Below are positions 14,544 through 63,845 of a stretch of 64,000 nucleotides of DNA, one piece after another; the stretch's first letter is position 1, and each line of letters begins with the position of its first letter. Origin of the DNA: Takakia lepidozioides (lineage: Eukaryota > Plantae > Bryophyta); contig CM060731.1 in NCBI GenBank assembly GCA_030704615.1, positions 5,394,001-5,458,000 on the forward strand, given 5' to 3'. Both the position numbers and the translations under genes were made by a program. The notes under the pieces are model-generated. The model did no database searches and was not told the origin of the DNA. It saw only the letters and a list, made by a program, of their open reading frames with translations.

Positions 14544-14576
14544 AACCTGAAAGTCATATTCTTGAAGGATGAGTGC

Positions 14577-34160: not shown

Positions 34161-34470
34161 TTGGAGCCTTATGGGGGCTTGTTTGAGGATTATTTGGGGT
34201 CTATTTAGGCCAATATCTAGCAGACATTGGGACCCGTTTGAGGACTATTTGGGGTCTATTAGAGCCAATATCTTGTAGGCTTGTGGAGCTTGCTTGGGGC
34301 TATTTGAAGAACTATTTGGGGTCCTTTGAGGCCAATGTTTTGCAGGCCTGTGGAGCCTTGTGAGGGCTGGTTGAAGGACGATTGGAGGTCTTTGGAGGCC
34401 AATACTTGGCAGATTTGAGGAGCTTCTTAAGGGCTGTTGGGGGACTGTTGGAGGTCCTTGGAGGCCAATT
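34160..34470 (+). repeat. Degenerate tandem repeats (ttggggtc...ggccaatatcttgcagg...)
   Basis: About five diverged copies of roughly 60-70 bp directly upstream of the gag remnant. Confidence 0.7.
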
Positions 34471-36553: not shown

Positions 36554-37879
36554 TTGGACACGGTGCCCATTATCTGGCAACCACCTGACACAGGGATTTG
36601 TTTGCTAGACCTGTTTGGAGGCATGAGCACTAGGCTTGCAGGAGTGTTGCAAGCAGGGATTAAAGTACACAAGTACTTGTATGTGGAGAAGGATGAGATC
36701 GCTCGACGTATTTCTATGTGTCACATCGCCTTGCTCACACACCGGTATCCTGAGTTGTTGCCTCTCTCAGCAATTCAAGGGTATCAAAATGCCTTGCCAG
36801 CAGACATTACCTTGCTGGGGGCGGATGATTTGGACCGGTATGGTTCCATTGACTTGGTGATAGCTGGATGGCCTTGCCAATGACACTCTCCCGCAGGTCA
36901 TGGGAATGGCTTGCATGATGCACGATCGCATTTGTTTTGGGAGATGTTGCGAGTGTTGCGGGACTTGCAGACGAAACAAGTGCAACCTCTAGGCTATATC
37001 TTGGAGAATGTTCTTCTTATGGGGGATTCTCGGGCCAGGGTAATGGCCAGTGTGCATCAGGTGCGGTCTTGGATTGGATCGGTGGTGTTATTGGATACAG
37101 CAGCGATGGGATCACACGCGCATCGACCTCGATTGTGGTGGACCAATCTTGCACCACCAAAGCTACTTAAGAGAGCATACGATTCCATTCAACGGCCACC
37201 CAATCTCACGGTTGAAGGCATTTTGGACCAAGGGAGGCAACCACAGAGAGTGCGACATGATGATCGTCCACCTCTAGCAGTGGTCAATCGAGTAGGGCAG
37301 CCACGTGCGGCCTTGCCTACGCTCATGAGCTTTCCCTCGTCTCATGCTTTCCAAGACAATGGTCCTAGGTTGATTTGGGACAGTGTGCTACAGCAATTGG
37401 TGGGGCCCAATGCGGATGAACGAGAGCGGGCAATGGGATTTGCCACCGGCACTACAAATGTGCCAGCTCTGTCAGCGGCATCACGCCGCCAAGTGTTGGG
37501 TCAAGCAATGGATTTAAATTGCTTGACATGGATAATTGGCTTGTGCATGGCTGAACAACGGAGATTGCAAGCATTGATGGCTACTTCTACACTCCCATTG
37601 GATGGTGCATCCTCCCTGCCAACCGGGACGGTTGAGGCAGTGAGTGGGGGCGAGCACAGGATCGTGGGTTGCAAACACCCATGGAAGATGTGGGATGAGA
37701 TGCGCAAAGAGATAGTCATTGGATCTCTCAAGCAGCAGTATGAGGAGTGGGAAGAGCCATGGACTGAGGATCAGTTGGAGGCCAAGGTGGCCAAGGTTTT
37801 TGAAGAGGTTGAGAATATTTCTTGCTCAGAGGATGTTCTCAAGGTGGCTATGGCGGAGCAACTGGAGGCTACGCCATAA
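36554..37879 (+). pseudogene. C5 cytosine methyltransferase domain (DNMT3-like), copy B
   Basis: LDLFGG, YVEKD, ADI, IDLVIAGWPCQ(stop at 36881-36883)HS, ILENV, AHRPRLWWTNL, ERERAMGF, RRQVLGQAMD. Both ORF halves are in one frame. Confidence 0.92.
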
Positions 37880-38077
37880 TCAGATTGGGCGGACAAGGCC
37901 CAAGAGGTTGTTATCTAGCAACCAAAGGATTCGTCTCTTACCTCCAAGCCTGGTGTACCCAAGGTTGCAGTCACTAAGGACAATTGGGAACCAGATGTTG
38001 GACCTACAGTCACCGGAGGAGAGAGATGGAGGATCCAGCGATTTCTAAGGGCTTATAGAAATTGCTTTGCCTTCGGT

Positions 38078-39248
38078 TTGAAGGATTTGGGAAGTTTGAA
38101 GGGTCAGGAGATTCGTATTGATTTGGCAAGTGACACGCCAATCTTTCGAAGGCCCTACCAGTATAGTGACATGGAGAGGTCATTGATCCAGTCACGGACT
38201 ATGGAGTTGTTCGAAGCTGGATTGGTGGAGTTGTCAGGCGGGGAGTATGCCTCGGCAACGGTGATGCCAGCTAAGAAGGATATCTATGGCAATTGGACAG
38301 AAAGAATGATGTGTGGGGACTATCGTCCTATGAACCATCAGACTAAGTCCGATAGATATGCCATGCCAACTCCAGAGGAGATCTTTGATGCCATTGGGCA
38401 TGCAAAAGTGTTTAGCACATTGGACTTGCGATCCGGTTACCACCAGTTGCCAATCAAAGAGGCTGACAAGCAAAAGACGGCATTCTGGGGGATTGACCAA
38501 CATGGGAAGGATTGTTTGTATCAATGGCGGTTCTTACCGTTTGGGTTGAAAAATGCTCTTGCAGAGTTTCAGAGGGTCATGGATAGGATTCTCGCAGGGC
38601 TAGACTTCGCCCGGTTCTACATTGATGATATCATCGTCTTTAGTGCTACGGTTGAGGAGCATGAGAGACACCTTCAGGTGGTGTTTGAGCGCTAGCGCAC
38701 AGGTTGAAACTGCACCCCGGAAAGTGCAAGTTCTTTCACAATCAGATTGAGTATCTGGGCCTCATGATATACCCTGGAGGATTGGGTGTTCAACAGACAA
38801 AGGTGGAGGCCATTGCATGCATTCCACGCCCCATGGATGTGAGCAGAGTTCGTGCTTTCATGGGATTGACAAACTACTATCGACGGTTTGTCAAGGGATT
38901 TAGCAACATTGCAAAGGCTCTTACCAAGTTGACCAAGGTGGGTCAGGAGTGGCAGTGGGAGGAGGAGCAGGAGGAAGCCTTTGAGGAACTCAAGACTCGA
39001 TTGACTTCTGCACCTATTCTGAGGCGGCCTTTCCAACTATATACGGATTGGAGTATGCTGGGGATTGGAGCAGTGCTCACACAGGTGGATGATGAAGGAA
39101 GAGAGTTTGAAGTGGCATATGCTAGTCGCTCGAACAATGATGCCGAGGCGAAGTATAGTTCTTATAAAGGGGAGTGTCTAGCTGCGGTATGGGCAGTGGC
39201 ACATTTCAGATGCTACCTCTATGGCAATCTCTTCACCCTTGTCACGGA
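38078..39248 (+). pseudogene. Gypsy RT and N-terminal RNase H, copy B
   Basis: MCGDYR, LDLRSGYHQ, LPFGLKNA, YIDD, TDWS. Ends at the insertion site in LVTD. Confidence 0.95.
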
Positions 39249-40078
39249 CCCGGGGGGTGCACTCCTCATTAAATGTACCAGCCACGTGCGTGCACAGGAG
39301 GGGGTATTTTAAACCCCCCCATGTACAACATTATACATACAGAGGGGGGTTTAAAACACCTTAAATATAATTTTACAGGAGGGGGTTGTTGAGTTTTTAG
39401 GGATAGTGTAGTGGTAAGAATGGCGATTCCGCCGCAATGCATCCTGGGATCGAATCATGGAATCGTCGTTTTGTATGTTTGTTTTTTTTTTTTTTTTCGC
39501 TCCACGATCTTTCTCCCCTGACCTCCCGCGGCTTTCTCTTTTCTTTCTCCTCCTCTCCCGCGTTCGCCTTCCCTTCCGCGGGCTTTCTCTTTTTCCTCCT
39601 CTCCTCTCCCCTCCTCTCCACAGGGCATGGTAGGACAATGTGGTGAGGGCACCAGAATGTGGTGAGGGCACTGACTTGGGAGAAGGTTTGAGGTTGTGAT
39701 GTATGTAGAGGGCAGGAATCGAAGGGGATGAAGTAAGTGCGCGGGAATGTGGGGCAGGCCTGGGCTAATCGGTGATGATATGCGGGTGTGGTGGCGGATT
39801 GTTGTGCAGCAATGACAGGAGGACATGGGCATCAAGATTCCCAGTCATCAGAGGTAATGAGCACATTAGGCCTATTTTCTTTCCTAATAATGATTGGCGT
39901 GACACAATGGTTGTACTCACTGTATCAGGCCTATTCTCATCCTTATTGAATCCAAACAGCCAGAGGGACAAGATGCCCCTAAGTGTACAGAACCTGAACG
40001 TCCTGAATCTGAAGGATTTGGTACTCAAGAGTTTACACAAGACGAGCAAAATCTACACATGGGGTAACTGTCCCCCCT

Positions 40079-42088
40079 TTGCAGAACGGTTGGGCGTCCA
40101 GGAGCAATCCCAAGCTACCTAGACGACAAACAATTCACATGCAAAGGGCTGGCTTGCGGCTGGCCATTTTCAACTTCTCAGGGCTTACTAACCAAAGGAA
40201 ACAACTCGAAGTGGGACAAGTCCTTCGGACTAATGATATTCATATCTGTGCTGGGCAAGAAACATGGGAAACTTCGGATAAACTGGTTGGAGATGTCAAT
40301 GGTTATAAATGGGCAGGTAGAATGTGTACTCTCAAGGAAGCCTCTGCCAAACGCGGTCAAAAAGGGGTTGGATTCTTTGTCCGTGATTTCTTGTTTGATA
40401 ATTGTGAAATTATCAAAAAGGGTTTGAGGTACGAACATAGTATCTGGCTAAAACTGAATCTGAAGGGTGGCATGAGTACGAAGGACCTCTTTGTGGGTTG
40501 TGTTTACATGCCCACAGAGGGGACCCTTAGTGTTGACGCAGACAAAGCCTTCGAAGATGTAAAGCTGGACTGTGCTTCGTTCCTTGCCAAAGGTCAGGTA
40601 GTGCTATTGGGTGACTTCAATGCCCGGGTGGGCAAAGGGCTCCATCAGGACGATATCCCATGATAGAGGCCCTAGTTCTCCTCTTTAACCTTATCTGGAA
40701 GACTGAAATGATCCCCTTTTGCTGGCGACAGGGGGTCATTGTCAGTCTATACAAGAAGGGTGACAGAGAAGAACCGGGGAACTACCGTGGCATCACACTC
40801 AGGAGTTGATTAATTGCGCGAAGCGATACTTTGATCTTTGGGGGCTAGAGGCTAATGTCAGCAAATGTGCAGTGGTAGCATTCAACGACAGAGGAGAGGG
40901 AGGAAGTGATCTTAAGTGGCAGTGGGGTAGCCAAGAGATCCCGGTCCTCCCTTCCTACACTTACCTGGGCGTTGAGTTTTCCTCCAATTGTAATTGGGAT
41001 GCACATATCCGGAAAGTTGTTCGAACTGGCAAGGGCAAAGCTCTGGGGCTCACTAAAATTTTTCACTGCAGAGGGGTCATCTCTGAGGTTAAGAAAACCA
41101 TGCTTTGTCGCGTTATTAGACCTGCCTTGGAGTACGGATCTGCTATATGGGTTGATAACTCCAACCAGGCTAAGTCTCTAGAATCCATTCAAGTGGGGGT
41201 GCTTAAGGAGTGTATGTCAGCATGCTCCAAAACAGCCAATGTGGCTGTTCGGGGTGAGTTTGGCATTCCATCCTTAAGCTCCCGACGAGATGAATTCAAG
41301 GTCAGATGGTGGGGTCAGCTGCAACATATGCCCAACACCATATATCCTAAGTTGATTGACTCTATATCTTGGAAACAGGACCGCCCTGTCAAACAGGCTA
41401 AGTCCTGGCAGAAGAGAGTAGAAAAGATTCTCAAGGACCTGGACCTGGATCCGCAAGTCTTGACCCTGCTGGATAAATCTGCCTTAGAGGCTGTAGTGTC
41501 TGAGGCCATGTCTGTTGCCATGAGATTGTCTGATGAAAATGAAGTTAGGCAGAGAACTTCCCTGAACTTGTTTCCAGTCAGTGACATGGGGGTGGACATC
41601 TTGGATGACCTCAAGGGTCTACCCACTCTCGGCACTAGACTGAAATTTAAACTCAGGGCAAGAAGCCTACCTTTGAACAGCAAACAGAAGCAGAGAGGAA
41701 AGGGAGAGTGCAATTGTCCGTTGTGTGGGCAATCTGAAGACAGTATTCATTTTCTGATACGCTGTCCGGGTTCTCTCACCAAAGAGAGGCTCTCTTCAAT
41801 TCTATCAAGGGAATTGTGCCTGTACCCCTGTTTACCAACTTTGAAAGTCTCGAGGCTGAGCCAAAAGCCCAGGTCCTCTTGAGGCCTAGTTTTTGGGCAA
41901 ATCACACACAACAGATTGATGCTTGTGTGAAGGGTTTTCTAGAGGATATCTGGAAAACCCGGATTAATTCCTTATACGATGGTAAGTCTTACTACCAACG
42001 TCAGCCCTGTTCCTTTTGTTCCCACTGAAACTGGGCGTGGGGTCAATGGCCACAAGGCTACGGCAAACAACGTCTTATGAGTACAATC
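40079..42088 (+). mobile_element. LINE family 2 (RTE/RTEX-like), internally deleted, with intact 3' end
   Basis: APE (FNFSGL, GQETW, LLGDFNARVG), jump to LYKKGD...NYRGITL, jump to post-YADD RT thumb (NVSKC, YTYLGV, RPALEYG) and a C-terminal Cys/His motif (CPLC...HFLIRC). Confidence 0.85.
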
Positions 42089-42599
42089 TCATCCTTATCA
42101 TCCCTCGCCTTTTGGAAAATTCCAGCCATAATTGAAGGGCAATTGGTTGTTGTACTTAACTGCATGAATGTTCCCCTTTCTGTTGGAATGAGCCGCACGT
42201 CCTTTCCATGCTGACATACCCTTTCTTCTTCCTGCAGGATCCTTTGCCCAGCCCTGTTATTTCTATCATTTGTGCCATCCTCTTGGTGTTTCCACAGCCT
42301 CCCCTCATTGCCAGTGAAGTGTTTCTTTCTCTTCCCTTTGTCTTTAAAGACACTCCAACTGTTAGCTGCAGTACCCTTCGCTGATTTCTTATTGCCTTTG
42401 ACCTCATGTATGTTTTCAATCATGTTTGAAGGGTGATCACTTGCTGCCATATGCATGACTGTGTCCTTGACTGCTTCTCTTGTCTCAGTATGATGTTTAA
42501 TTGTTGTCATGTCAGGCTGTGCTCACCTGCACCGTGGTGTCTTCAAATGGATCAATTTTTCAGACACGGTCTTGCCAACTGAATGATGCAGGTTCACTT

Positions 42600-43228
42600 G
42601 GGAGAGTGCACTCCCCCTTTCCTCTCTGCTTCTGTTTCATGTTCAAAGGTAGGCTTCCTTCCCTGAGTTTAAATTTCAGTCTAGTGCCGAGAGTGGGTGG
42701 ACCCTTGAGGTCATCCAAGATGTCCTCCCCCATGTCACTGACTAGAAACAAGTTCAGGGAAGTTTTATGCCTAACTTCATTTTCATCAGACAATCTCATG
42801 GCAATCATGGCTTTGGACACTACAGCCTCTAAGTCTGATTTATCCAGCAGGGTCAAGACTTGCGGATCCAGGTCCAGGTCCTTGAGAATCTCTTATACTC
42901 TGGCCTTGGGAAAACACCTTTTGATCTCAGTCCAGAAAGTGGTCAGAGGTACCAATATCAGTTCTGTCGATCAACACATTGGCACACTGGGGGAACAAAT
43001 TTTTGTCCATTATGATATAGTCCACAATGGAACGTTCCCCAGTTTGGGATTTCTCACGAGTCCACTGCACTTGGTCACCTCTTGTCTTGTTAATCAAGGT
43101 CAAAAGCTGAAGCTCTTCCAGACAGTTAATTAACCGTCTGCCATTAGAATTCAGCTCGTCCTCACCAGAAGACCCAATGATATCGTCCTGATGGAGCCCT
43201 TTGCCCACTTGGGCATTGAAGTCACCCT
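42600..43228 (-). mobile_element. Second internally deleted fragment of LINE family 2, inverted
   Basis: GDFNAQVGKGLHQDD...IVDYI...SDH joined to sequence matching 41415-41712. Confidence 0.85.
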
Positions 43229-43763
43229 ACAATAGCACCACAGAGATGAAGAGAAGCTTTGGAATGAGACACTTTTCTGACCCCAGTCAATGGTGGGACA
43301 ATGTGGGTCGGATGGTCAACTGGAAACAGCAGCGGCAACAGCGCAATTGATAAAGCAAGGCACTGCTGATGAAAGGTACCTTCTTCAACGTATTTCAGCC
43401 TGAGGGCACCTTCTGGTTTGACCTGTTTCAGCCTGTTTTTCCCTCTCATCAGACTCAGCCCTGAAGCATATGTATTGAATTCTGTAAGTTAGCTCGTTGG
43501 GTGGATCTGCGGTGCTCTGGAGTGACTTTGCAAGTTGCTGCCGAGGTGGTAGCATGACAGTACCTAAAAAAAGATAATAGATAGAACAAGGGACTGCTAA
43601 TGAAGGTACCTTCTTCAAACAGGCTAATGAAGGTGTTCACTATGCAAGGTGTCACATACAAATGCATCTGAGCAGAAATTATAGGTGATGAGCTTGTCTC
43701 AGCAAAATTTCATTTCATTTCCATGGGGGGGGTAGTGTCCTTTCAGCCAAGCAAGAAGAGAGG

Positions 43764-46700
43764 ATGGTTCTAAAAGGGGATACTGTACACATTAAGATTT
43801 TAGACCAAAATGATGGGGACCAAGGATTGAAAAGACCTCTATCTTCCAGTGGTTCTACGATCTTGCATGAGGACAGACCAGGCAAGGACCCGGCACCAGT
43901 GTCTACCAAGATGAGGATGGACCCTGATACACCCTTTGCTGGCGATGGTGGAAATGAAGACCATGCACATGAGCATGCACTTCAGCAAAGATCTGGTAGA
44001 TTGTGCAATACGTTGGCTACATCCAACGATATTCAAAAATGGCAGAAAGAGATTAGAGCCGTTGAAAGGAAAATCTCTGCAGAAGGACGATGTGACAAGT
44101 TTGAGCTGATGACAAAGGACCAACAAGGACAAGCAATGTTCCACATATGGTGTGTTGAGTGTGAGGATGTTTATGCACGGTCTGGGAAAAACAAACCATA
44201 TGATGCATGTGCAAACTTTATGAGATCTCATTTGAGGAGTGAGGGGGCATCGCATAGCCTATGAGAGGCGTCATGGGAAGGGTTCATCACAATGTGTCAT
44301 CAGCCCTGTAAATGCAGATGAAGCATTAGACGCAAAGAAGAACAGGGTGAAGGAGGCATTAGAGGAAGTCGCTCAGTTTTGTGAGGACAATCCTGGAAAC
44401 AGATTTGAGATTGTGGAAGCCACAATTGGAGACTATTCGCAGTTGGGTTCCATAAGGATTAGGTGCCCACTGGATTCGAAGTGGCTACTCTTGTTTCCAA
44501 GGACAGGTTCTTTGCAATCTTCTTTGACAGAGCATGTGAAAGGAAAAACTCATGTCAATGCAGAGATTTGCCAGAAGGTTGGAAGTAGTGAAGGACCTTG
44601 CAAAAAGAGAGGAAGGCCTCCAAAGCCTATGATTGCCAAAGATGTAAAGCAACGGGATCTAAGCTCTTTCTTGGTCAGTCAACCTGTGTTGTCGTCCCCA
44701 CCACTTGACAATCCAATTGTGGCATCAACAATGGGAGCATCCTCGTCACAAACTCCATACGCTTGTGTTGACGCTGCCCAACGGGGAGATCTGATCGAGG
44801 ATTGACAATTACAGCAAAGGTCCCAATGCAACAAAGGAAGAGACAGTTTGTGTTGGGGCCTATGGGATGAATGGTGGGAGTACAACCAGCAGAGAATAAG
44901 TCTGAAACCATTCCTTCAAGATAGCAAGGGAGGAAAGAAGTGGTATGTCGAGCCGTTGACAAATGCAACCATCACTCTAAACAATCAAGAGCATAAGGTT
45001 GTTGGTACATTTCGGCACGCGGATTGTTTTAGAGTGTCATTGGATGGGGAGCCATTTCCAAACTTGAGATGTTCACCATGTTCTTCCATTCCCTTGGAAA
45101 ATGACTTCAGAATGAGGGTATATAGAGAAAGAGGTGCCATGGAATGTAGAGGGGAGAGAGATACTGGCAAGGGAAGAAGGTTGTCATATCTTGGAAATGC
45201 GGAGATTGTCAAACAAGTTTACAAAAACAGACAGGAGTTGAGGCAGTTGAGGTTCAAATTGTGGGAGGCCAGGACCAAAGTGGCATCATTGTCTGTGCGA
45301 TGTAGGAGTTTGAAGGAGTCTGGGATTGAGGCAATTGAAAGAGGAGATGTTCTCAAATTTTGTCGTGATATTGTTGATGCACATAGGAGGGGGGATTTTG
45401 AAGGAAAAGAAAGTTTGTGGGATTTTCTTGTTGATATGGGCAAGAATATTGACAGGTCTCCACAAGGGAAGAGGTATGGTACTAGCACAAAAACAATGTT
45501 TGAGACTGTGCAGCTTTGGGGGGTCCGAGATTGCATCATTTTTTGGCTTCAAATGTGGGGGGTCCTTCTATTGATACTACAAGACGGTCTTTGAGGAAAG
45601 GTTTGAAGTATAGAACGGGAGAAACAGATGATATATTTCAGCATGTGGCTGGAATTTACAGAGATGTGATGGAATATGCAAATATTCCATTGGGAAGCAT
45701 CCCAGTGATGGTGGCCGAAGATGAAACTGTTGTGAAGCAATTGGTACGTTGGATTGCTAGGGATGACACCCTTCTCGGGTTTTGTGGGCTTCAAGACAAC
45801 CATGTATGTATTTCAAATTTTGTGGTGCAAGTGGGAGAAGGGGAATCAGGGTACCAACATATTGTGGAGGCATTCAAAAACAATGTGGTTGCCCATTATG
45901 CTAGAGTGTTGATAGCAAATCCTCTACATGTACAGTTACCTCGATTGGTATTGGTAATCCAGCTCACTTGCAATAGATTTGACAACAATTTTGTGAGATC
46001 ACAATGGGAAGTGGTGAGACAGTTGTGGGACAAATATGTGAGGGACGTGGTTGGGCCTATAATTGGGCATGCTTCAGACGGAGATAGTAGGAGGAGAAAA
46101 GTGATGTTAGAAGATTATGCCAATGGGGCTGGAAATAGATTTTGCATCCCTTGGGAAGGATGGTTGTTTACAGGTCGAGTGTGCAACGGGGGAGATATAT
46201 ACGGACTCCATGATCAGGACTTCATCCACAATGGGAAAAAATTGGTAAATCCCTTGGACAGTGCATCACGGACTTTGGTGTTGGGTGATGAGGTTGCTAC
46301 ATTGAATCATGTGTTATTGGTCTACCATTCATTTTCAGTGGACAAGCATGGACTTCGGAATGTGATATCAAAAGAGAAGATCGACAGAATTGGGCAGCAG
46401 CTCAACGACTGGCATCTCGGAAGGTGCAAGCTTATTTGAGGGAGTTACAATCAACTGTGAATCATCGAAGAGAGAGGACCAAAGGTACTGAAATTTACCT
46501 ATACATCATTTCATGCTACATCGACATTTTTTTGTCTCCTCACATGTCATTGTGTGAGAGGGTACAATCTGCTGCGAAGGTATCATTTTTTTCAGATTGT
46601 GGAAGTTATGGCTATTCCAGCACGAGGTGTATAATCTGAAATCCTTCTTCATTAGCAGGGAAGCATACTTGGATTTACAAATTTCATGCCACTACGTGGT

Positions 46701-47976
46701 TCTACTTATCAAATTGGTCAAGGATAAGTTTAATCATGTGCAAGTTCCTTTGAGCCTTGTTGGTTCAGATGTGTGTGATATATTCTTCAGCAAAGTGGGA
46801 GTTATGTCACGGAATGAGAGGACATATGACGGGTGTGATTTGATTGAGAGTGCGGGAGCATTAACACGCATATCCGAGTTCGAGGCGAATCCAAAAGGAC
46901 CCAAGTTCTCAAGAGCTCACAAGAAACAAGAACACATATGGTCTTCTTTGGAGAAGAAGCCAGGTATCCCCCTTGCTGATTTGTCCGACTTTTCTACTGT
47001 CCAATCGGATGATTGCATTGTGGAGGCTTTGAAAACTGGATTTCTAGAAGCGCAACTTTTATGCCATAAACTTGGGATGAAACCAAACAAAACAACAAAC
47101 TTGGATTGGTGGAATGAGCCATGGACAATTGAGAGACAAATGGAGGTCGAGCTATTCAAAAGCATGGAAGAGGAGGGTGATGATGTCAATGCCATAGATT
47201 CTATTTGTCCTCTTAATGCAGACACACATATTCAAAATGAGGTTGTGGAAGATGAATTGGTGTGCGGGCCTTCGAATTCAATGGAGGATGTTTTGAGCCA
47301 ACCTTTGGATGATCATGCGGAAGAGGTACTTGTTCAAAGTGAATTGAGACATACTCTGGATGCTGTCATTGATGAGTTTGAACAAGAGAAAGATGGATCG
47401 AAGGCAGTGGTTCCATTTGTCAAAGTAGACGGGAAGACCATATTCAAAAGCACTTTGGTTAGCCAACTCAATGGCAACCCTACTCTATCCAAGGATAGAT
47501 TGACACGAGTAAGAAGTGCATCGATGTTGTTTTGCCGAGAAAACAAACCAACTACCAGCAACAAAGCCACGAGCTTGGGATTGGGTTCGGATTGTGCTGT
47601 ATTTTTTGTTGATGGGGAGACTGCGATCCAAACTACAAACATGAAAGGTAGACCAGGGAAAACCTGCAGAGGAACAACCAAAGGCACTTGGTATTTGGGC
47701 AGGGTTCAAAGAATGCGGAAGAAAATCAATAAGCGGTTTGTAGAATGTAGGGATTCTGTTGATTTATTGGAGCGTCATTCTCATATGGAGATTGGATTAG
47801 CATGGTACCAAAAAATTCGAGGAGGGGTCTATACGTACGATTTGACGGATAACATGATGGTTGATTTGGATTCCATTATCGCGTTAGCATGTTTAAAGTA
47901 CAATGTCAAGTCAAACACATATGTTCTTGATGCAAATGACCGAAAAGTCTTTGACAACTTTATCAAAGGCAAATAA
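43764..47976 (+). pseudogene. P-element-like DDE transposase (six ORF pieces, ~1300-1400 aa if joined)
   Basis: N-terminal Zn-finger-like motifs and an AT-hook (KKRGRPPK). Core GGPSIDT, VAEDET, GHASDGD, DQDFIHNGKKLVNPL (DxxH) and GSDVCDIFFSKVG, in the order and spacing of P/THAP9-type catalytic motifs. Confidence 0.7.
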
Positions 47977-48286
47977 TTTTTTTAATTAATTTGTTAGATT
48001 TTATTATGTTTTAAATGAATAAATTCGATATAATATAAAAACATACATATACATATTGGAGGGTTATTTTTAATGATGAAAAATGAGAATATACATACAT
48101 AAGGGGGTACTTTTCGAAAATTGTAAATTTTTGTATATTTACAGGAGGGGATTTTATAATCTTCAAAAAGTATGTACAGAGGGGATATAAATTATCCAAG
48201 GACCCATATACAGGGGTTTTTTTATTAGGCGACGAACGCACGTAATACGCACAGTTTATAAAGAGTGCACCCCCCGGGGTCACGGA

Positions 48287-50043
48287 TCACCAACCATTGA
48301 AGTGGTTGATGGAGTCAGACAAGCTTACAATGAAGCTTGCACGGTGGCCACTTATGCTTCAAGAGTACGACTTCCAGGTGGTGCATCGAGCCGGTATTGC
48401 CAATCGGGATGCAGATGGATTGAGTTATAATCCATGCACGAGCGAGCATGATGATACTGGAGCTCGGTGGCATGGTGAGACGGATGAGGAGATGGTGCCA
48501 GGATGGCATACATCGGTCTTTTTGTGCATTCTAGCAATGGGCTCAAGTTGGTTCATCTCATGTGATTGGTCATGTAGATAGCGTGCATGACGATCCAGAG
48601 ACTAGTGAGGAGTTTGGTGGTGCTAAGGATGTACATGAAGATGCAGCAGTGTTGGCCTACCTTCGTACTGGAGAGACAGTAGCCAGTGTGACTGCTAAGG
48701 AGAGAGATCGGATCCTACAACGAGCCAAGAGGTTCAAGTGGGAGGGGACTCACCTACTCCGGGTATGGGAGGATGGACGAGTGATGATTGTGCCTCATCC
48801 AACACAACGAGCGCGATTGGTACGCCATGCCCATGAGGAGTTGGGACATTTTGGGGTGCGGCGCACTCATAGTTTGCTGCAAGGGCAGTATTGATGGGGG
48901 GACATGCACACGGATGTGCAATAGTTAGTGGCAAGGTGCATGGTGTGTGATAGAGTGCGGGCTTCTTTCAACGCCCCTACTCCATAATTGCATCCTTTAC
49001 CCATTATGGGTTTGGGCTATCGTTGGAGTCTTGACTTTGCAGGCCCATTGTCATTGACGATTCGTCATAACAAGTATGTGTTGGTGATGGTGAAACACTT
49101 CTCCAAATGGATTGAACTGGTCGTATTGCCTGACAAGGCAAGTGATGGGGCTGCATATGCATTCTTAGATCGAGTGCTTAGCCATTTTGGTGCTCCAGCC
49201 GAGGTACTCACAGACCAGGGGAGAGAGTTCTTGGGGGAGTTTCAGGCTTTGTGTGAGCAAGCCTTGATAGATCACCGCACTACTTCTTGGGATCATCCCG
49301 AGGCTGATGGCTTGGCGGAAAGAGTTGTTCAGACAGTCAAGAGAGGTTTGCGCAAGTACGGTTTGCAGAAGGGACACCTAGGAGATTGGGACCTTCAGCT
49401 GCCTTGGCTAGTTATGGGCTATAGGTTCAGCAAACAAGCTTCACTTTCCTCCTTCTCACCTTACTTTCTTCTCTTCGGCCGAGAGCCGGATTTGCCTGCA
49501 TCTATTCGCAGGGAGGCTGCAGTAGTTCTCAACCTTGATGATCCGGATGTGTGGACACAAGCATGTGCCCAGCGGGCAGAGTTGTTCAAGAGAGTCATGC
49601 CTATGGCTTTTGAGAACCTTGCTATTGCCCAACATCGAGACACATTGAGGTACGCCACTATACGTGGAGGGGGATATCGGCCAAGTGTTCGACGTTTCCA
49701 CCCTGGGGACTATGTGTATTTGCAGCAGACAGCGACTACGACCTTAGATGTCACAACAGGACATGTGATTCTAAGGGTCAGGGAGGTGTTGCCTTCAGGA
49801 GTGTTGATTCTGGAGGGTCGAGATGACATGGTATGGAAGGACCATGTGCGCAATTGTGCGCCATGTCACCTTCCACATGTGGATGGGAGGATAGATCTCA
49901 ACCTTGCAGTGGTACCTGCGGGGTTGCGTTGCATGTTATGTGGGCATGCTGGTGGCGCCGCAACCATGTTGGTGTGTGACAAATGCTCAAGGGGGTGGCA
50001 CATGGGATGCTTGACACCGCCACGTTTGCACCCGACCTCTTGA
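48287..50043 (+). pseudogene. RNase H C-terminus, integrase and PHD finger, copy B
   Basis: HQPLKWL...ADGLS, HEELGHFG...CMVC, WSLDFAGP, TDQGREF, GLAERVVQT, CMLC...LVCDKCSRGWHMGCLTPP. Confidence 0.93.
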
Positions 50044-51636
50044 TCTATCGACTTTAGGTGTTGGGACTTGTGCGATTGAAGACCAAGCGATGATCTTATT
50101 GGGGTGGATACTTGCAAGCTATCCGGTGTTAGAGGGACCTAATCACCAGCTAGGACTTCAACAATTACCATGAACTCATGTGCTTTGCTCCGTTTCTCTT
50201 CAATATACTTCATAAGAGAGTATAAGGAAAATATATAAATATCAAATGGTGGGGCTTGTGTTTTTGAGGCAGATAACCGGTATGTGTAAAAAAAATTTGG
50301 GAAAGTAAATTGTGAAAAAGATGTGGGAGAAAAATGCTCGCTTTGAGAAAACTGGGATGCGTAGTAACATGGTAAATTTGATTTTTTAGCCTGATCAGTT
50401 AATAATCTAATGTCTATTAATGGGGTTTTGTATGGACAACATGACATGCAAATAGCTCTTATTTTTTAGCAATTTTGGTGAATGAGTTTGTGGGATGTAC
50501 ATAGGGGGAATAATTCCACTCCACCATGCTGTAGTTCTCCCACACATATCTTACAATAGAAACTATATCAATATGTTTACATCTATATTACTCACAATAT
50601 TATTTATAATAACTACATTCTGATATACATGCTCTCTAAATATGATTCAAAACAGACTATGCTCCACAATCCTATCACATCTACCTTTTCACTGAGCACC
50701 TAATACAATACCATTCGTAGGTTCTGACGGTTGGGGTATTCCATGGTTTCCTGTATGGCAACATTCTTCTCTGTCGATCAACCTTTGCCCGTAAGCCACA
50801 TTCTGTTTCTACTTATCAATGTCAAACAAAGGCTGCCATATTTTACATGCCAATTTTCTCCTACATTATCATCTACTCTTTATTACAAACACGACACACA
50901 CCACATCTCACCAATCTATAAATAACTACCAGTACATCCAAATAAAACATTCATCCCATTCCCAAAAAGTCATCATGCCTACAAAAATTGTATTTCGGCG
51001 TTGATCACCCGTTGGCAGGATTGTGATGCTCTTGCTTGCTGGCTATAAGGTAGAAACATCTCAAATGGACCATTTAAGAAATGAGTGTAGTTTCAGGTGT
51101 GCAGTGTCGTCATATATATATTTCTGATGTGGGCACAAATAAATGAAATTTAATGAAAAAAAAGAAAAAAAAGAATCCGAATTATTTTAAAATATTGGTG
51201 AATATTCAATGTGAAATCATAGAATAATCCTTGAATGGACCAGTAGGGGGTACTATTTTGAACAGCAAGTGTACTCTGTCTAGAGGCAAAAAGTATGCGT
51301 CCTCTTTCACTTTACTGTTTAAACAAATAGTAACATGGACCATGTCATTCAACTAACATAATTATTTACTGACCTTAAAATAACCTCCCACTCCTAGAAA
51401 ATTGAGCTCAAGGTTGGATGAAACTCAATCCTAGATCGTTGATCTAGATGAAACTCAATCGTGATCATTGATCACGAAATGCGATCCCCTCTCATGCATG
51501 TTTGGATTCATTCTTCCTGTCTGGACTCATTCATGACTTGATACTTCTCTCAAAATGCGCGCCAGTGGATATTAATTTGTCCATTAAGTGGTATTATCAT
51601 GATCATGTATGAGTTAAAAGGGTTCATTGCAATTAC

Positions 51637-55145: not shown

Positions 55146-58100
55146 ATGCTCATCCGCACACAAGTGCATCGTCATCTGCGGCCATATCTCAGGCAGCGGA
55201 GCTGCATTGTACTCCCTCATTATATTTTGAAGGGCCCTTGTCCCGTTCATGTCCACCTTGGCCTGTGTTCATCTGACAGAAAATTCAATCACGTTGATCA
55301 AACCGTCGGGTTTAGGGTTCCCAAACATGGAATTTCTTCATCATCTTTCCATTTCTGGGCTTCAAAGCAAGTGCCGCGACCGTCGTCTGAGCATCAGAAG
55401 ATTTCCCTGGTAGACGGATTTACATTCTCGAGAAGCTGGCCGTATTTGTACAGGGACACTGCGCATGGGGTGTTGCGTCAAGGCAACGACCTTTCGTCGT
55501 CCCTGGAGAAAAAGAAAGGGTTCGATCTCCACAGCAGACAGCGAGTGTACTATTCAGCAGGGGCAGGGGCAGCGACCTTGCTTATGTTCATCGCTGCATC
55601 GGCTGCAATCTCTATGTCCGCTGCTGAAATGCATGGAATTGCGCTCTCGGGATTCTTGGCCCTCTACGATTCTGCAGTGGAATTTGCAAGGAAACTGGCT
55701 GGGATAATGTGGAGCTTCGAGGGGGCAATGGTGGAATCCATTGTAGATTTTGTGGAAGCAGGTGCGGCCGCGTGGGTGCTGGTTCGTTGCCTGGCTTCAG
55801 TGCTTGCATCAGCTAGTGACAGTGCGACACTTGATGCGTTCGCCTTGTGGCGACCGAGGGTAGCATCTCTACTGGCAGGTGTGGACGATGAAATGTCACT
55901 TAGAGCTCTTGGTCAGTAGGTAGCAGCATATAGTAGTCAACTGTGGCTGGAGATCTGGCTGGAGATCTGTCAATTAGGTTACTGCCTCTGTCAGGAGGCT
56001 TGGAAGTGATACCATCCCGCGTCTTGGCGCTGCTGATTTGCTTACATTTATAGCTTATCCATCCCTTGGCATGATAGAGGGGGCATAACTGTGTCGATTT
56101 CTTCCCCCACAGACTTCAGACCTGTAGGAACTCAATCTGGCAATGCCCAAACCATGACTGGATGGACCACAGAACTAACCTGTAAAGGTCGAGTGCATGT
56201 CCAAACACCTTCAGATGTACATTTCAATTTCAATGTTGCAGTCCTTCAATTCTGATTGCTCATTGAGGGTAGACTTACTCCAATTAACTGTCTAACGATT
56301 AAAGAGAAGCTATGGTGGCGCAGATCTTGCAGCACATGAGAACCGGAGAAAAGCTGTGGTGGAGTCAGGGAATGGCGCAGTGGTGGACTGGCTGTTGAAG
56401 GCTGTTGGAGGAGGCAGGTATGGTTTGCATGTAGTGCACGCCAACTCATAAAAAATGTATGTTTCCACCACTACTCATGGGATATTGTCTTGTTGACAGG
56501 CCATGTAAAAGGAAATCTCTTTCAGCTATGTGGGAAGGCCTTGCCTTCTAGTGGTAGCAATCTTGGCAGGCCATAATAGATGTTTTAATTTCATGGCAGG
56601 CCGGCGTGCATGGTGACCCAGGCAGAGGCATCAAGGGCTCTTGCTCACCTTCTGTCAGACGTAAACACATGTGAGAGTGTGTTAGGCAGGCCGCATGCTT
56701 TGCCCTACTTGCTACACTTTGCGGCTTCCCTGCAACCTCGTGATGCCATTGAGGTTTGTGACAATATGCACCATGTTCGTTTGTTGTATGGTAACAAGTC
56801 TTTGTTAGGTACTGACTTGGATTCCTACAGGCCCTCTCTGCCCCATGGGCAGCCCACTGAGCCTCCCTTGGAGGTAATGGAATTCTTCTCTCCATTGATG
56901 CAAACACCTCTGGGGATCTGATCTCGATAAGAAGCTTTCCAGATGAGATAAATTTTACCTGTTTGGTGTGTTGCTTTTATGCACAGTGAGATTAGTAGCA
57001 GGAGTAAGTGTTGTCACATGGTACATTTGCTTATGAGAACTTCATGAAGGGACTTTAGCTTTGCATAGTGCAAAGAATATACATGCATTAAATTGTCATG
57101 TAAATTTGGAAGTGCTGGAGGCTGTCTGATGTGCATCTGTATTTGTCACACGGAGCTGAATTCTTATTGTGTGGTAAATTTGGATGAGTAGTGGAGAATC
57201 TATAGGGTGATTACTCTTAATATTTTCACTATCAATAAATTTGGCTGCAGAGCTTGAAGCCAGGGAAGAAAGAGCACGTGACACAAGAAGGGGGAGAAGT
57301 TCCAAGAGGAAAGAGTCTTCTTGTTGCAGCTATAATGGACCTGATCACCTCGAGCTGTGATTCTGGGGATGCCTTTGCAGGATTTCGTCCCATGCTTCCA
57401 GGTTTATACACTCACTCCACACATCCTTGAAATACTAGATTCCCAGTTTCTTTTGTCAAGTTATTTCTATGTTCCATCCCCTGTCCCTATCTTTTGTGTA
57501 TCGCCACAGGGCTAGCTGTGTATTGTACATGATTCATACCTGCATCCGGGACACAAATACACATCTCTCCTAATCAGGTGTTGTTGTGATTGGGTTAAAT
57601 TCTACAGGGAAAGCGGACCCAGCAGATGTTGTGACAGCTTTGCAAGTGGTGGGGGGTGGCTGGCTCACAGAGGACGAGGGAAATTCTAAGGGAAAAGATG
57701 GAAAGGATAGAGGGGCGGTTTCTGTACCTGGAACATTAGTGCATCCAGGCACAGACGTTGTTGGCATCCAGAGAATGGAAGAGTTCTTTTCACAGGTTGC
57801 CATAGCTGAGTGGTGCAAAAAATCTGCACTTTTTATCATGGATTTTTGGGCCTTGAAAAGTCCATTAGGACGCAACTTGGGGGGCAGAGAGACCTCAGGT
57901 CCTGTTGGGACTGTGAAGTCTCTGAGGGTAGAAGGCACAGAGGATGCCAGAGGGATTATTAAGAAGAGGTCTAGTGGAAGCTCTGGTAGCAGCTATGGTC
58001 TGTGGGATGACCTTCCAGGTCTATATGTTGCAGTGCCATTGGCAGCTTGGGCACTTGCCACATGGGCACAGGCCTCAAGTGCAAACCGGTCAACAATAGC

Positions 58101-61100
58101 CCACATTGATAAGGATGGTGATGCCTTACTAGCTGCTGTTCTGGCACCTGAGCGAACAGTGAGGTGGCATGGGGCAAAGGCTATAATGTTTCTCCTACAG
58201 AATGTGGACCAGGGTTTTAGTGACGTTGCAGCTCGGTGGAGCTCCGCCCTACTGGCTATGGCAGCTCAGGCTGGCAGCACCAAAGACTCGCCACTGACAA
58301 ACTCAGCTCTCACTGCCCTCAGGGCCTGTGTGTCACACAGTCAGGGTTTGTGCGGCTTCCACCATGACCCCTTCTTCAAACATAAAATGTGAACCTACAT
58401 CTCACCCATGAATATGCTGATATTTTTATCGAATACCCTGCATAACAGTCACCAGGGTGTATAAAGCCTCCATTAGGAAGGGATTACTGACACGAATGTA
58501 GTCTTGACCTGACTCAATCACTTCTGCTGCCCAGCAGGTGCCCATGATCTGGTAACAGAGAAAGGCCTTCCAGTGCTGCGTAAGCTTGCCAAGCAGACAG
58601 AGATGGATGCCCGTGTCCAAGGTGCACTTGCACAAACTGTTGATTTGTTTACCGCTACCGGAGGAGACCTCTCATTGGATGAGAGCAAGAAATGGTCGCC
58701 AATTCTTCTCCGTTGGGTTTGTAGCCAAAAGTCAGAATATGTGACAAGAGATTGTGGGTGCCACATACTGATGCGAGTTGTAAATAGTTTGGGACAAGGG
58801 GGCATTCCAATCTCACAAGCGTGGCTCGCCATGCTCCTTATGGACATTGTTAGTGATAACATTAAGATAAAGCCCATCAAACTGAAGGGGGCTTCAACTG
58901 ATGTCAAGGAAGCTAAAGAGAGAGGCATGGTCCAGGTACGATGTTTATTTGGTTACCCCAACGCATTTCTTTTGGGTAGGATGCAGAATGGGCTGCTAGG
59001 GACTAGTCTCTTTTCAACCCACTTCCATTGAAGGTAGCCGAAAGCCTGGTCTTAGGTTGCAATGAGGTTCACCTATAAACAGATTGAAATTCAGCAATGG
59101 GGCAAAGGGGACAAGCAGACCAAAAAGGGGGAGCGGGTAATAAGAGGGATGAAAACCATATGATATGGAGGTAGATTGCACATTTTTGCAGAGTGAACGA
59201 ATTCAGGTGGCAACTGCAGCCGCTTCCCAGCTGGCAAAAGTTGTAGCCCAAGAAGCCGCAGCTGCAGCAGCAGCGACTGAACCGACAGAACAAGCTGTTG
59301 CGGAGAGTGCTGCTGAGTTGCCCATGGTGGATTTGCTAGGCTTTGATTTTCCTGGAGATTCGTCATCCAAGTCTGGTAATAAGGAGCCCCTGCCAAAAGT
59401 TACAGCTGGGGAGGCTGCCTTGGCTACCTTGAAGGCTGTCAAAGCTTTGACAGAATTGACAGCTGAGGAACCGGTGAGCTCATCTTATCATCACCAGTGT
59501 TTGTTCCAGTTGACTTTATCAGTGTTTTGGAATAACTATTCAGTACCATTTTGGCATGTGAATTCCAGACATTTTCTTACATCAGTAAGTATGTTATCTT
59601 ATTTTGGATATTTCAAACAGGTGGGTAGGCAACGAATCATAGATGCTGGTGGGCTCTATTTGCTACGGCGCCTCCTGCTCTGTGATGATTTTGGTGAGTG
59701 GGCAGCTGCTGAAGCGAGTGAGGATGCGAAGAAAAACTCCGGAGTCCAGCCAGGTAATGAAGGACTAGAAAAACAAGTGCTACCAGGAAGGCCCAAGGAT
59801 TTGTCCGACTCCAAAGGGCCCCCTATTGCCCATATTCAGAAGCATGCTGCCCGGTTGCTCTCCATTCTCTCATTGCAACCCTTGGCTTCATTGGAAATAG
59901 CAGACGACCCAGTATGGTGTGACTGGCTGGAGGCATGTGCTGAAGGTCAGTTCAGCAATGACTTAAAAATGCGCAGTTACGCCTGTGTTATACTGCTACA
60001 TGTGGCTCGAGCAAAGGAAATGGCAGCATCAGGGGTTGGATTGCAAGGGCCAGGGAGAGAGTCAGAATATGGTTCACTTGAGGGGGTTGAGATTTGGCCA
60101 CGTTATGAAGATACAGTCTTTCTGATGAACCCTGAGGCTCCCTATTGGAAGGTACAATTCGGTAGGAGAAGTATTGGAACCGCAAACAACAAAGGAGTCT
60201 TTGTGGTGGGAAAAGCAGAGGACCTGTCTGTGGGGTTTCCACGTAGTACACAGTCTGCAGGGATGGTGCGTAGTTATTTACGATGGTAGTAACAGAATTA
60301 ACAAACGTATACTGTTTCGTGTGTGTGTATGAAGGCTAGTTTAGCTAATAAGTAGCCAACTGACAGTACATTATGCACTTGGTGGAAGCTTTCAAGCGAT
60401 AGCCCAGTGCCTAGGGCATGTGGTGGTCATATTTAGGCAGCCCTGTGTTTCGAATCCAGAGAGTTTGTGCTACGTATTCAACCCAGCTGCAAGGGATTCA
60501 TTGGGTCAACTCGGTGACCTACCGACTGGATTTGTGGACGATTGAATCTTTGGTGACAAGTGATGTGGAAATACTGCATGCAGGAAGTGAACCGCTGGGA
60601 AACAGGATTACAATGTTGAAGGTGCAATGAGTTTTGGTTTATGGACCTGCATTTAGCATGATATGTTGCACAGATGCAAGCATGTAACACCTCTAGGATC
60701 ATCTCAACCTAAGAGAAGTTGACAATAGTGTGAAAGTTTCTGCAGCCTGCTGACCTCTCATAACTTATAACTAAGACAATGTTTTTGGTGAAACGGGGAA
60801 GATTATAGCTGTGTCTAGTCTGAGGGAAAGCTCGCAAAATCTTAATTGCTGAAGTACTGGAGTGTTATGATAAGCAATTTACAGCGGTATGCAGGAGGAG
60901 GACGACACACCAGTGATGGATGTGGTGTTTGTGCATGGCTTGAGGGGCGGCCCATACAGAACATGGCGTATAGCTGAGGAAAAAGCTTCAATAACTGGTA
61001 CTCTGGTCGTGAATATTGATGTGGATGCTGGAAAGGTGGGGACATGTTGGCCAGAAGAGTGGCTTAGTGCCGACCTTCCTCGCAGCCGCTTTCTTACGGT

Positions 61101-63845
61101 TAAATACAAGGTAAGTACTCATATCTCTGTGCCCTGTCATTCTTTGGAGTTCGCTGTCATGATGTTTTAGAAAGCAACTTTTGACTGAGTATATATTTGA
61201 CCATCACTTACAGCAGCAGCATCCTCATTTCCATGCTTGAAGTCTAGCATACAAGGAGTTCGTTGGCCCTCTTTGTTACACCATTGTTGATCAGTGCGAG
61301 AAAACAATACTAGGCATGGGGCAATACATGGGCCATTTTTATGCCACTTGCCTTCCTTTCAGCTGGAGTAGGCATAGCTCCTGTTTTTATATACTGACTT
61401 CCATCTATCTGACTGCCCTGCAGACGAATTTGTCACAATGGTCAGGTGCCACCCTTCCACTTCAGGTACTTCACCTGCAGTGATTTGTTGGCACAAGTTA
61501 GATTTTGGAGGTTTGTGTAATTGAGATATGTGACATCCAACTGGCCCTCAACATTTGAGCGCCCACTCATTGGTTCTTGCATACAATTGTCAGGATCTCC
61601 TGTCATCACCTCAAAGGGCTGGAAAGGCAATTATCTGTAATGTATTAACTGCCGAAACTCCACTATTTCAGCTCTTCAGTTACATCTGGTGTCCTATCCC
61701 TGCCATTTTGAGATAGAAGGGAAGGCAATGAAAAATCAGTCTGAATTCAACAGAAAGGGTGTTGGCTGCATACAGGAGGTCAGCTCTATGCTGCTCGATA
61801 AGTTACTTGCTGCAGGTGTTGGAGAGCGTCCGGTCTGCTTTGTCACTCACAGGTCAGCCTGTCTCTCTCAGCTGGAATGATTAACAGAGTCTGGATGTCC
61901 CGGAAGTGTCCATGGCCTCTTAAGATGGGAAGTTATACTATGCTTCATATTCAAATCTTGTAGAAGGTTTGGTACAAAAGCAGAACGGGCCATTAAATGT
62001 CTTGAATCTTCTGTTCAAAGTGACCATTTAAGGATTTTTCCTCCTCACTTCACCCATATTCAACAAGTACAATGTCTCTAGTCAATATCAGCATCCATCT
62101 CCACTCATGGAGACACACATTCAACTTTGCAAGTATGATAACCAACAGGAGTGACTCTTGGGAGCATGGGCGGGTGTTGCAGCATGGGAGGGCTAGTTGT
62201 GAAGCAAATTCTGCTGCAAGCAGGTCAAGATGAAAAGCGGGCCCATCTTGTGAATCAAACATCTGGCATTGTATGACTTCAGTTCTTATTTGTCTTTTGG
62301 AGATAAGTTGGATGATACTTGCAGTCCCCTATTTGTAGAAGAGAGACTTCACACCCATTGCAATGCTATGGTACATAGGACATGTCTCGTGTTTACCATT
62401 GTAAAAATAGGTATGGATCTGGTTGTTTGCTAGCCTTCTTTGGTTGCATGCTGGAGTGAGTGCAGGTACAAGAGGGTACTGGTGGGTCCCAGGCTGAAAT
62501 GATTTGGACAAATGTTCAAGGCTAGTCTGCAAGCTGCAGGTCAGGTTTTAGTGTTTAATGTTTCTGAATCAATGTACTACCAGTGGTCTAAAGGTTCGAT
62601 ATAACAGTGCATATGTTGTCTGCAATTTCCTTTTTTACAGGTATTTTATAGCTGCCCACATTTTGGAAGCAAGCTTGCAGACGTGCCTTGGGGCTTTGGC
62701 TATGTACTGCGACCTGCCCCCACAGTCAGCTCTTTCCCTGAACCTCCCTTCCTCTCTTGCCCCTTCTCTTTGTCAGTTAAGCTCGCTTCTGGTGCAGCTG
62801 ATGGATGACTATGCTCACAAATACACAAATGTGTGAAGGCCCACTTCACAAGAAAATCATTCTTCAAAGCATACATAGTGAGAAATGATTTTTGAAAACT
62901 TTGTAGTCTCGGTGTGGTGCAGGTAGGGGAGTTAAGGAGTGGGTCCCCCATGCTGGAAGAGCTGAACCGCACTATTCGCCTGCTTCACAACAAAGGCCAC
63001 CTGGATGTTCTCAGCTTCAGTGAGGTTTGTGGACCTCAAACAATTTGGTTTAATACTAGCCACATCCAGGATTGATTGCACTTCCTGGGTGGGTAAGACA
63101 GGGCACAGGATGAGGGTTGGTCGCTGAAAGTTTATGCAGAGGGGGTTTGGCAATTAGTTCTGGCCCCAAATTATCTGGCAAATTTGCAGCCAGTGGAATC
63201 ATAGTTGCTGCAGTGCTTAGGAGAAGACCTGGGACCATAATTGGACCTATGTGGCATGTCAATTCTCCAAGTCTGACAATTGCTTTGTGATGACTGCAGA
63301 CAAAAGTAACTCCCGTAGTTGAGGGCTATGGCGGGTATGCATTACGAATGGAAGTGGTGCCCATTGAGTCTGCCTATCCAGGCTTTGGTGATCTTGTGGT
63401 AATTACCTCCTTTCCCTGCTTAGCATAATCATGGCATGGTTTGTTCCTAGCTCTGCCCGTAGCTATTGTCTTTGCAAATATGGGATTTATGCAAGGTAAG
63501 TGTGGGGAGCCTTGTAGATTGTAACTGTGCTAGTTGCTTTGCTGCCGTTGGTTTGATTTTCCCTGGATTCGCAAAGAAGATGAACACACCAGAAAAACAT
63601 GCAATTTTTCGAATGTAAATAAACCACTAGGATGTCCATGATTAGAATCATCATATAGGATCTATTGGCTGGATATACTAATCCTGATATGAGTGGGTAT
63701 GTGTTGACAGCTTCTGGATGGTACAGACCACATTAATTCATGTAAACCTTTAAACCGATCTGACCCCGCATACACAAAGACACTCGACTTTCTACAGAAA
63801 CGCGCTGAGCTGGCTGTTAAAACCAGACCTAAGGCACATCAGTGA
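55146..63845 (+). CDS. SERAC1: SERAC1-like protein (ARM-like N-terminal region plus C-terminal alpha/beta-hydrolase), ~16 exons
   Basis: GT-AG exons approx. 55146-55878, 56333-56417, 56600-56752, 57251-57401, 57608-58345, 58538-58935, 59192-59473, 59621-60264, ~60893-61110, 61424-61465, 61775-61852, 62182-62270, 62641-62724, 62922-63024, 63300-63398, 63711-63845. Motifs DVVFVHGLRGGPYRTW, WPEEWL, FVTHSMGGLVVKQIL, FYSCPHFGSKLA and TDHINSCKP. The start codon is uncertain. Confidence 0.88.

Follow-up and report, generated by a model that had tools for sequence, protein, structure and literature searches.

A degraded PHD finger in a moss retrotransposon and the DNMT-bearing Ty3/Gypsy lineage to which it belongs

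A stretch of 64,000 nucleotides from the moss Takakia lepidozioides (referred to here, at its full length, as the window) contains two copies, A and B, of a retrotransposon in which a PHD finger follows the integrase. The feature is a real PHD, of which a broken remnant survives in copy B, and both window copies are dead. By its sequence, the element is a member of a large Ty3/Gypsy lineage of green plants that extends over mosses, liverworts, charophytes and chlorophytes. On balance, we lean towards a reading in which the integrase of that lineage has the finger as a conserved component. In live copies, the finger likely anchors the integration complex on nucleosomes by binding the free N-terminal end of histone H3, and probably does so independently of the DNMT that the same elements carry.

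The PHD finger in the two window copies

In copy B, the frame that begins at position 49930 of the plus strand reads CMLC-x11-CDKC-x4-H-x2-C-LTPP, and is continuous with the C-terminal end of the integrase open reading frame (48988-50043, plus strand). The Pfam profile PF00628 scores 25.3 bits in this copy and 26.8 bits in copy A, both above the curated cut-off of 24; an earlier note, made from the letters of the window, had claimed that a PHD finger is fused to the integrase C-terminus and had named this search as a check, and the claim is borne out. Homology to PHD fingers stops at 50022 in copy B, and the tail that leads from there to the stop codon at 50043 is non-homologous. The finger of copy A, described in the same note as the full-length version, is complete in length and incomplete in its ligands, since ligand 2 has become a tyrosine (12988) and ligand 6 a serine (12919). 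Six of the eight C4HC3 ligands are thus left in each copy, and neither is intact.

The lesions in both fingers are private to copies A and B, and all eight ligands are retained in other copies in the same organism. In run X1, from that organism, a cysteine codon is found in 66 contigs at 12919 and in 73 at 12987, and these contigs hold nearly all of the summed depth at the two positions. Loose contig ends at 50018-50023, 27 of them at 50023, extend with sequence that resembles the C-terminal half of copy A.

Copies A and B are 82% identical over 1.7 kb, and a comparison of the two gives dN/dS values of 0.09 for the integrase, 0.08 for the DNMT and 0.07 for the N-terminal half of the PHD, the last being drawn from 30 codons only, with dS near saturation. 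These ratios point to purifying selection on all three domains, with a constraint that is equal among them.

Architecture of the element and its surroundings

Pfam matches and alignment give the domain order gag-PR-DNMT-RT-RH-IN-PHD, in which the Gypsy order PR-RT-RH-IN, with a DDE integrase, is present (Table 1). The ends of relatives display split repeats of the form A1...PPT-B1-A2-B2, complete in six of the 31 loci examined and represented by B1/B2 alone in six more, and a target duplication of 4 bp was seen at three of five loci inspected. The split repeats of L021, L044, L058, L059, L073 and L077, and those at 12470-12591 of the window, have TGTCATG/CAYGACA ends; the B1-A2 junction resembles a two-end circle junction with two spacer bases.

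Reads cover the element far more deeply than the flank, but this depth is not to be taken as a copy number. One contig covering the integrase-PHD of a family member came from a run guessed to be RNA, and was set aside as evidence of expression. CpG depletion, considered as a possible trace of self-methylation, proved uninformative, the observed/expected ratio being 0.47-0.55 for the copies of the element, 0.44 for the transposon inserted in copy B and 0.35 for the host gene.

The 9-kb DNA transposon that splits copy B contains an open reading frame (45504-46436) that resembles P-element-type transposases in Atlas (0.92-0.93, PF21787) and has no Pfam match of its own, and it also holds a 298-bp inverted repeat; it would be unusual for a moss to carry a P-like element. 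The SERAC1-like host gene near the end of the window scores about 1,200 bits against Ceratodon and Physcomitrium, about 1,030 against liverworts and about 700 against named seed plants, as is to be expected if the host is a moss.

Table 1. Features of the window, with positions counted from its first nucleotide
Feature	Position	Strand	Remarks
L1/RTE-like LINE remnant	1-3400	-	
Unrelated Ty3-type remnant	5208-8821	+	little CpG loss (o/e 0.98)
Polypurine tract, repeat B1, start of repeat A2 (split terminal repeats), copy A	12470-12591	-	
PHD finger, copy A	12863-12997	-	full length; ligands 2 and 6 lost
RT, RNase H, integrase, copy A	12998-15765	-	several frameshifts
TAG-CAA-CCA between DNMT and RT, copy A	15975-15983	-	in frame
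DNMT3-like domain, copy A	16269-17260	-	frame shifted around motif I; lacks the protease region
Inverted copy of the family's B repeat	17524-17611	+	interrupts Gag remnant of copy A
Gag (zinc-knuckle-like motifs) and aspartic protease, copy B	34364-36223 (protease 35807-36223)	+	one premature stop
DNMT3-like C5 methyltransferase, copy B	36566-37558	+	motifs I, IV PCQ, VI ENV, VIII RxR; premature stop directly after motif IV
Readthrough-type stop TAG-CAA-CCA between DNMT and RT, copy B	37916-37924	+	in frame
Reverse transcriptase and 5' part of RNase H, copy B	38132-39248	+	frameshift at about 38690
DNA transposon inserted in copy B, splitting it	39249-48278		16-bp perfect TIRs, 8-bp target duplication, P-element-like transposase remnants, nested LINE fragments
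Integrase, copy B: H2C2 zinc domain, DDE core, SH3-like C-terminal barrel	48535-49929	+	frame broken near 48.9 kb
PHD finger remnant, copy B	49930-50022	+	ligands 1-6 kept, 7-8 deleted
3' untranslated region remnant, end of copy B	50117-50154	+	directly before polypurine tract
Multi-exon SERAC1-like host gene	55400-63840	+	

Fold and position of the finger

A structure model of the matching region of a relative (L013), with a pLDDT of 84, consists of a beta-barrel followed by a PHD, and so shows the fold whose absence the earlier note would have counted against its claim. The model superimposes on solved PHD fingers (DPF2/3, ATXR5, UHRF1 3zvz and BAZ2A) with rmsd values of 0.5-1.3 Å over 45-48 aligned columns, the value for the ATXR5 PHD being 0.8 Å over 47 columns. 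Chromoviruses carry a chromodomain after the SH3-like barrel of their integrase, and the order of barrel and finger in the L013 model therefore puts the PHD behind that barrel in the chromodomain's place, in agreement with what had been proposed for the element; a Pfam scan of the window open reading frames and of 19 long relatives produced no chromo match. Tudor-PHD proteins, which were the top Foldseek matches, were rejected as structural counterparts at rmsd values above 12 Å, the likeness consisting only of the order of a barrel and a PHD.

All 60 of the best PDB matches listed for an intact relative are PHD proteins, with the unmodified-H3 readers CHD4, BHC80, KDM5A/B PHD1, ATXR5, DPF3 and UHRF1 at the top. 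The element shares with animal DNMT3A/3L the presence of a zinc-finger reader and a DNMT3-type enzyme within one genetic unit, a resemblance that had led to a suggested analogy between the finger and the ADD domain. That analogy is not supported: the finger is a canonical C4HC3 domain that lies on a different open reading frame from the enzyme and is not adjacent to it, no ADD family was matched at E<=0.01 in a Pfam search of the window open reading frames, and no DNMT3 ADD chain is found among the 60 best PDB matches listed.

What the finger may read

Among 120 homologs, 99 possess all eight PHD ligands, and the residue counts that follow refer to these. The Ala1 pocket (P-x-G-x-W) and the aspartate that binds Arg2 were mapped from KDM5A PHD1, as described in the accessible text of 10.1101/715474. 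The corresponding residues are widely kept, with the aspartate after Cys3 found in 91 homologs, the proline in 84, the glycine in 78 and the tryptophan in 99. A tryptophan two positions before the histidine, which we take to be the place of the invariant cage residue of H3K4me3-reading PHDs, occurs in none of the 99, and 90 of them have a glycine there. The role of the cage tryptophan in K4me3-reading PHDs is described in PMC3241642. Judged by these residues, the finger belongs to the class that binds unmodified H3 tails; the fold and the Ala1/Arg2 pocket residues are common to it and to the unmodified-H3 readers KDM5A/B PHD1, ATXR5, BHC80, BAZ2A and UHRF1. To this extent the earlier note is supported: a PHD that is under purifying selection is fused to the integrase of an element that has a DNMT3-like domain.

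A role in which the finger reads no histone at all, and instead has a host or element protein or a nucleic acid as its partner or serves to stabilise the integrase, appears improbable: while some PHDs do have non-histone partners (PMC3241642), and while much of the negative charge has been lost from the finger of the moss subclade, the residues of the Ala1 and Arg2 pockets are conserved throughout the lineage.

The window subclade differs from the readers listed above in its treatment of Lys4. In PHDs that bind unmodified H3, acidic residues hold Lys4, and the neutralisation of both wall residues in BAZ2A reduces H3 binding 17-fold (PMC5415848). Acidic Lys4-pocket residues are present in only two of the 14 near relatives that make up the window subclade, as against 80 of the 85 other homologs, and the acidic wall and the aspartate before Cys1 are absent from copies A and B and from 12 of the 14 nearest relatives. 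Because the Ala1/Arg2 pocket is kept and the acids that hold Lys4 are mostly lost, the finger of the window subclade is likely to be an H3-tail tether, and its service as a sharp sensor of H3K4 state is doubtful. The proposal that the element targets its integration by H3K4 state is not upheld for this subclade, in which residues of the KDM5A/BAZ2A type that would read Lys4 are missing.

It could nevertheless be supposed that the finger is a strict H3K4me0 reader in the moss subclade as well, employing backbone carbonyls in place of acidic side chains, and that it steers integration away from active promoters in the manner of a chromovirus chromodomain. Main-chain carbonyls likewise hold Lys4 in KDM5A PHD1 (10.1101/715474, accessible text), the cage tryptophan is missing throughout the 99 homologs, and intergenic insertions of a PHD-bearing element of Chlamydomonas, Gypsy-7a_cRei, are reported at 2.6 times expectation in the accessible text of PMC9940879. 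The authors of that study, however, allow that the insertion bias may reflect selection, and the absence of the wall and pre-Cys1 acids from 12 of the 14 near relatives, set against the 17-fold effect in BAZ2A (PMC5415848), makes such strict reading unlikely. In the reading that we favour, the PHD of live copies would bind the H3 tail through Ala1 and Arg2 and thereby tether the integration complex to nucleosomes, with a discrimination of Lys4 that would be weak in the moss and liverwort subclade and a preference for K4me0 that would be stronger in the algal branches. The finger is likely to help steer the landing sites of new copies.

Distribution of the lineage and placement of the DNMT

A search seeded with the DNMT returned 273 clusters (50% identity, E<=1e-30). 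Among the best 150 of these 273 clusters, 41 of the 43 DNMT-bearing representatives with a complete integrase also carry the PHD; this count is used in place of the PF00628 matches found in 115 of 120 integrase-PHD homologs, a figure that is biased because the query contained the PHD. The named relatives come from Marchantia, Calypogeia, Sphagnum fallax, Klebsormidium, Coleochaete, Haematococcus, Pleodorina, Tetrabaena, Chlamydomonas eustigma, Scenedesmus and Hariotina, and the viral contigs that were scanned yielded no relative. A DNMT is absent from three full-length polyproteins that carry the PHD (P0071, P0423 and P0426). Four Marchantia gene models (Mp_4g09160, Mp_8g17980, Mp_6g11220 and Mp_7g09570), annotated as hypothetical, as DNA-methyltransferase or as PHD, are pieces of the retrotransposon, and P0394, a member of the plant family that is filed under an uncultured cyanobacterium, probably reflects bin contamination.

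The DNMT3-like domain is intronless, lies in the polyprotein region and has its catalytic motifs. For the DNMT of one relative (P0134), the best PDB matches are DNMT3A/3C/3B, at E values from 2e-6 to 1e-5, and the bacterial enzyme HaeIII follows closely at 3e-5. Two placements of the domain are found: before the reverse transcriptase, as in the window, a layout with streptophytes as its named members, and between RNase H and the integrase, a layout with chlorophytes as its named members; in the chlorophyte branch the DNMT directly precedes the integrase, and DNMT, integrase and PHD are contiguous. A tree of 51 chosen DNMT rows separates the two placements (24 versus 27 rows, SH 99), and a tree of 137 integrase rows (>280 aligned residues) largely does so. 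Both trees were made with FastTree and midpoint-rooted without an outgroup, and they fit a single capture of the DNMT followed by relocation, or two captures, alike.

Motif IV of the DNMT reads PC in the window subclade and EC in 75 of 150 representatives (the best 150 of the 273 clusters); the substitution of Glu-Cys for Pro-Cys is seen in L038, L049, L059, L065 and many algal proteins, in which motifs VI and VIII are kept. Some members of the algal type (P0158, P0237 and P0332) have a G-patch domain between DNMT and integrase, and many (within P0031-P0120) extend for a further 100-380 residues beyond the PHD, with no Pfam match in that extension.

An in-frame stop between DNMT and reverse transcriptase

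Both window copies have the sequence TAG-CAA-CCA in frame between the DNMT and the reverse transcriptase (Table 1); the 9-mer readthrough pattern occurs five times in all over the two strands of the window, two of these occurrences being at this homologous spot. A stop followed by CAR-YY is found there in 21 of 24 loci with a reverse transcriptase anchor (18 TAG, 3 TAA), most of which are copies of one family, so that the count amounts to about two further lineages. The sequence UAG-CAR-YYA is the TMV-type readthrough signal, with an efficiency of about 10% in TMV according to the accessible texts of PMC3542737 and PMC2754532. The main moss family reads CAR-YYC, and so falls short of the full CAR-YYA; in L013, two open frames of 1369 and 1047 amino acids are joined by TAG-CAG-TTA. 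No in-frame methionine lies between the stop and the reverse transcriptase in copy A, copy B or L013, and 29 database proteins contain the DNMT with neither reverse transcriptase nor integrase, most of those listed ending 75-170 residues past the DNMT. The conserved stop is likely to be leaky, if its sequence context is a guide. In a second family, of 13 loci, no stop is conserved between the two domains, and the DNMT consequently shares one open reading frame with the reverse transcriptase and the PHD.

In the window subclade, the DNMT ends the first open reading frame and the PHD ends the second, in the same frame and separated by about 1,000 residues and the stop. Translation would then yield mainly Gag-PR-DNMT, with RT-RH-IN-PHD made in lesser amounts by readthrough, and the methylase would accordingly be packed at Gag-like amounts, where it would most likely methylate the element's own cDNA within the particle. 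A DNMT made in bulk with Gag, together with a minor integrase-PHD, fits methylation of cDNA in the particle better than it fits methylation guided by the PHD. The DNMT thus probably works apart from the finger rather than as its partner.

The opposing view, in which recognition of H3K4me0 by the PHD would guide or activate the DNMT of the element in the way of the ADD domain in animal DNMT3, so that the new insertion site is methylated, draws upon the co-occurrence of the two domains in 41 of 43 representatives (best 150 of 273 clusters), which, like the equal constraint on the three domains, also counts against separate action, upon the DNMT3A/B/C proteins that head the PDB matches of the DNMT, and upon the algal fingers, which keep the Lys4-reading acids in a branch where DNMT, integrase and PHD are contiguous. 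Against it stand the stop and the residues that separate the two domains in the window subclade, the loss of the Lys4-reading acids there, the identity of the finger as something other than an ADD, and the retention of the PHD in the three full-length elements that have no DNMT; moreover, Gypsy protease normally cleaves Pol into separate enzymes. We regard such coupling as improbable, and a coupled DNMT3-like pair as unlikely in the window subclade, in which the reader/writer pair in cis that had been suggested from the window is not supported. Generalisation of separate action is opposed by the second family, which lacks the stop, and by the chlorophyte elements, in which the DNMT adjoins the integrase and may be coupled to the finger.

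Relation to known elements and significance

REM1 of Chlamydomonas is said to be a PHD-bearing LTR element. The PHD, taken alone, is an ordinary accessory domain: it is described as such on the Gypsy polyprotein of Gypsy-7a_cRei from Chlamydomonas in the accessible text of PMC9940879, and the accessible texts of PMC6673714, PMC8557442 and PMC9940879 treat PHDs as widespread in retrotransposons and as a possible guide to integration. Gypsy-7a_cRei and REM1 resemble the window element in having this domain on a Gypsy polyprotein, with a role in integration already proposed; the figure legend for the former names no DNMT.

The closest described element is KnitGypsy-Dnmt3 of Klebsormidium nitens (de Mendoza et al. 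2018, PMC5890265). According to the accessible text of that paper, it resembles the elements described here in its Gypsy domain set with a DNMT3-like domain, its DIRS-like split repeats and the purifying selection on its DNMT. It differs in that its DNMT lies within the Pol open reading frame, rather than at the end of the first open reading frame before a readthrough-type stop as in the window subclade, and in that it was reported from K. nitens only, whereas the relatives described here come from mosses, liverworts, Coleochaete and chlorophytes and have their DNMT in either of two places. 'PHD' has no match in the text of PMC5890265, the Fig. 4c and main supplement of which may show one. An integrase with a PHD from K. 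nitens (P0008, 54% identical) falls within the integrase clade of the window element; it was retrieved with no link to a DNMT, and the named K. nitens DNMT was not among the retrieved matches. The same accessible text proposes in-particle methylation of cDNA for such elements, and describes the Klebsormidium DNMT as showing no activity in yeast, a result it calls inconclusive. PMC12344493 repeats the 2018 report without adding to it.

EpiLTRs of Cymbomonas and Euglena, as described in the accessible part of a preprint (bioRxiv 10.64898/2026.05.21.726589), likewise combine a histone reader and a cytosine methyltransferase within one LTR element, and differ in having a chromodomain, a DNMT4-sister enzyme and DAM where the present elements have a PHD and a DNMT3-like domain; no DAM was found in Pfam scans of the window open reading frames and 19 long relatives. 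An opinion paper (PMC6338049) states that land plants 'such as tracheophytes' have no transposons that code for a methylase, and the text of the REXdb survey (PMC6317226) contains neither 'methyltransferase' nor 'PHD'. PHDs on Gypsy elements, DNMT3-bearing Gypsy elements and elements with a chromodomain and a DNMT are therefore already in print, as is the proposal that PHDs guide integration, an idea that is plausible for the present finger. A Gypsy lineage across green plants that bears both PHD and DNMT3, with two DNMT positions and a leaky stop, was not found in the literature searched, which mostly excluded subscription papers.

What sets the present elements apart, within the literature searched, is the wide range of the lineage, the two positions of the DNMT, the loss of the residues that read Lys4 and the readthrough-type stop. 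DNMT retrotransposons have been described as rare, with the Gypsy kind known from a single alga; that kind now comprises the 273 clusters, reaches land plants, including records from Marchantia and Sphagnum, and almost always ends in a PHD. A larger scheme is tentative and rather unlikely to hold as a whole: that this is an old, green-lineage-wide Gypsy clade with its own reader and writer, wired in two ways, in which streptophyte elements would produce Gag-PR-DNMT as the bulk product and obtain integrase-PHD by leakage past a TMV-type stop, with cDNA methylated beforehand in the particle, and chlorophyte elements would keep DNMT-integrase-PHD uncut, docking on nucleosomes unmethylated at H3K4 and methylating upon integration. 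If it were true, the chlorophyte protein would be a transposon-built analogue of DNMT3 targeting. The lineage offers two handles on mechanism: the readthrough-type stop, from which the methylase would be expected to be a particle protein at the level of Gag, and a comparison supplied by nature, both of PHDs that have or lack the residues that read Lys4 and of elements that have or lack a DNMT.
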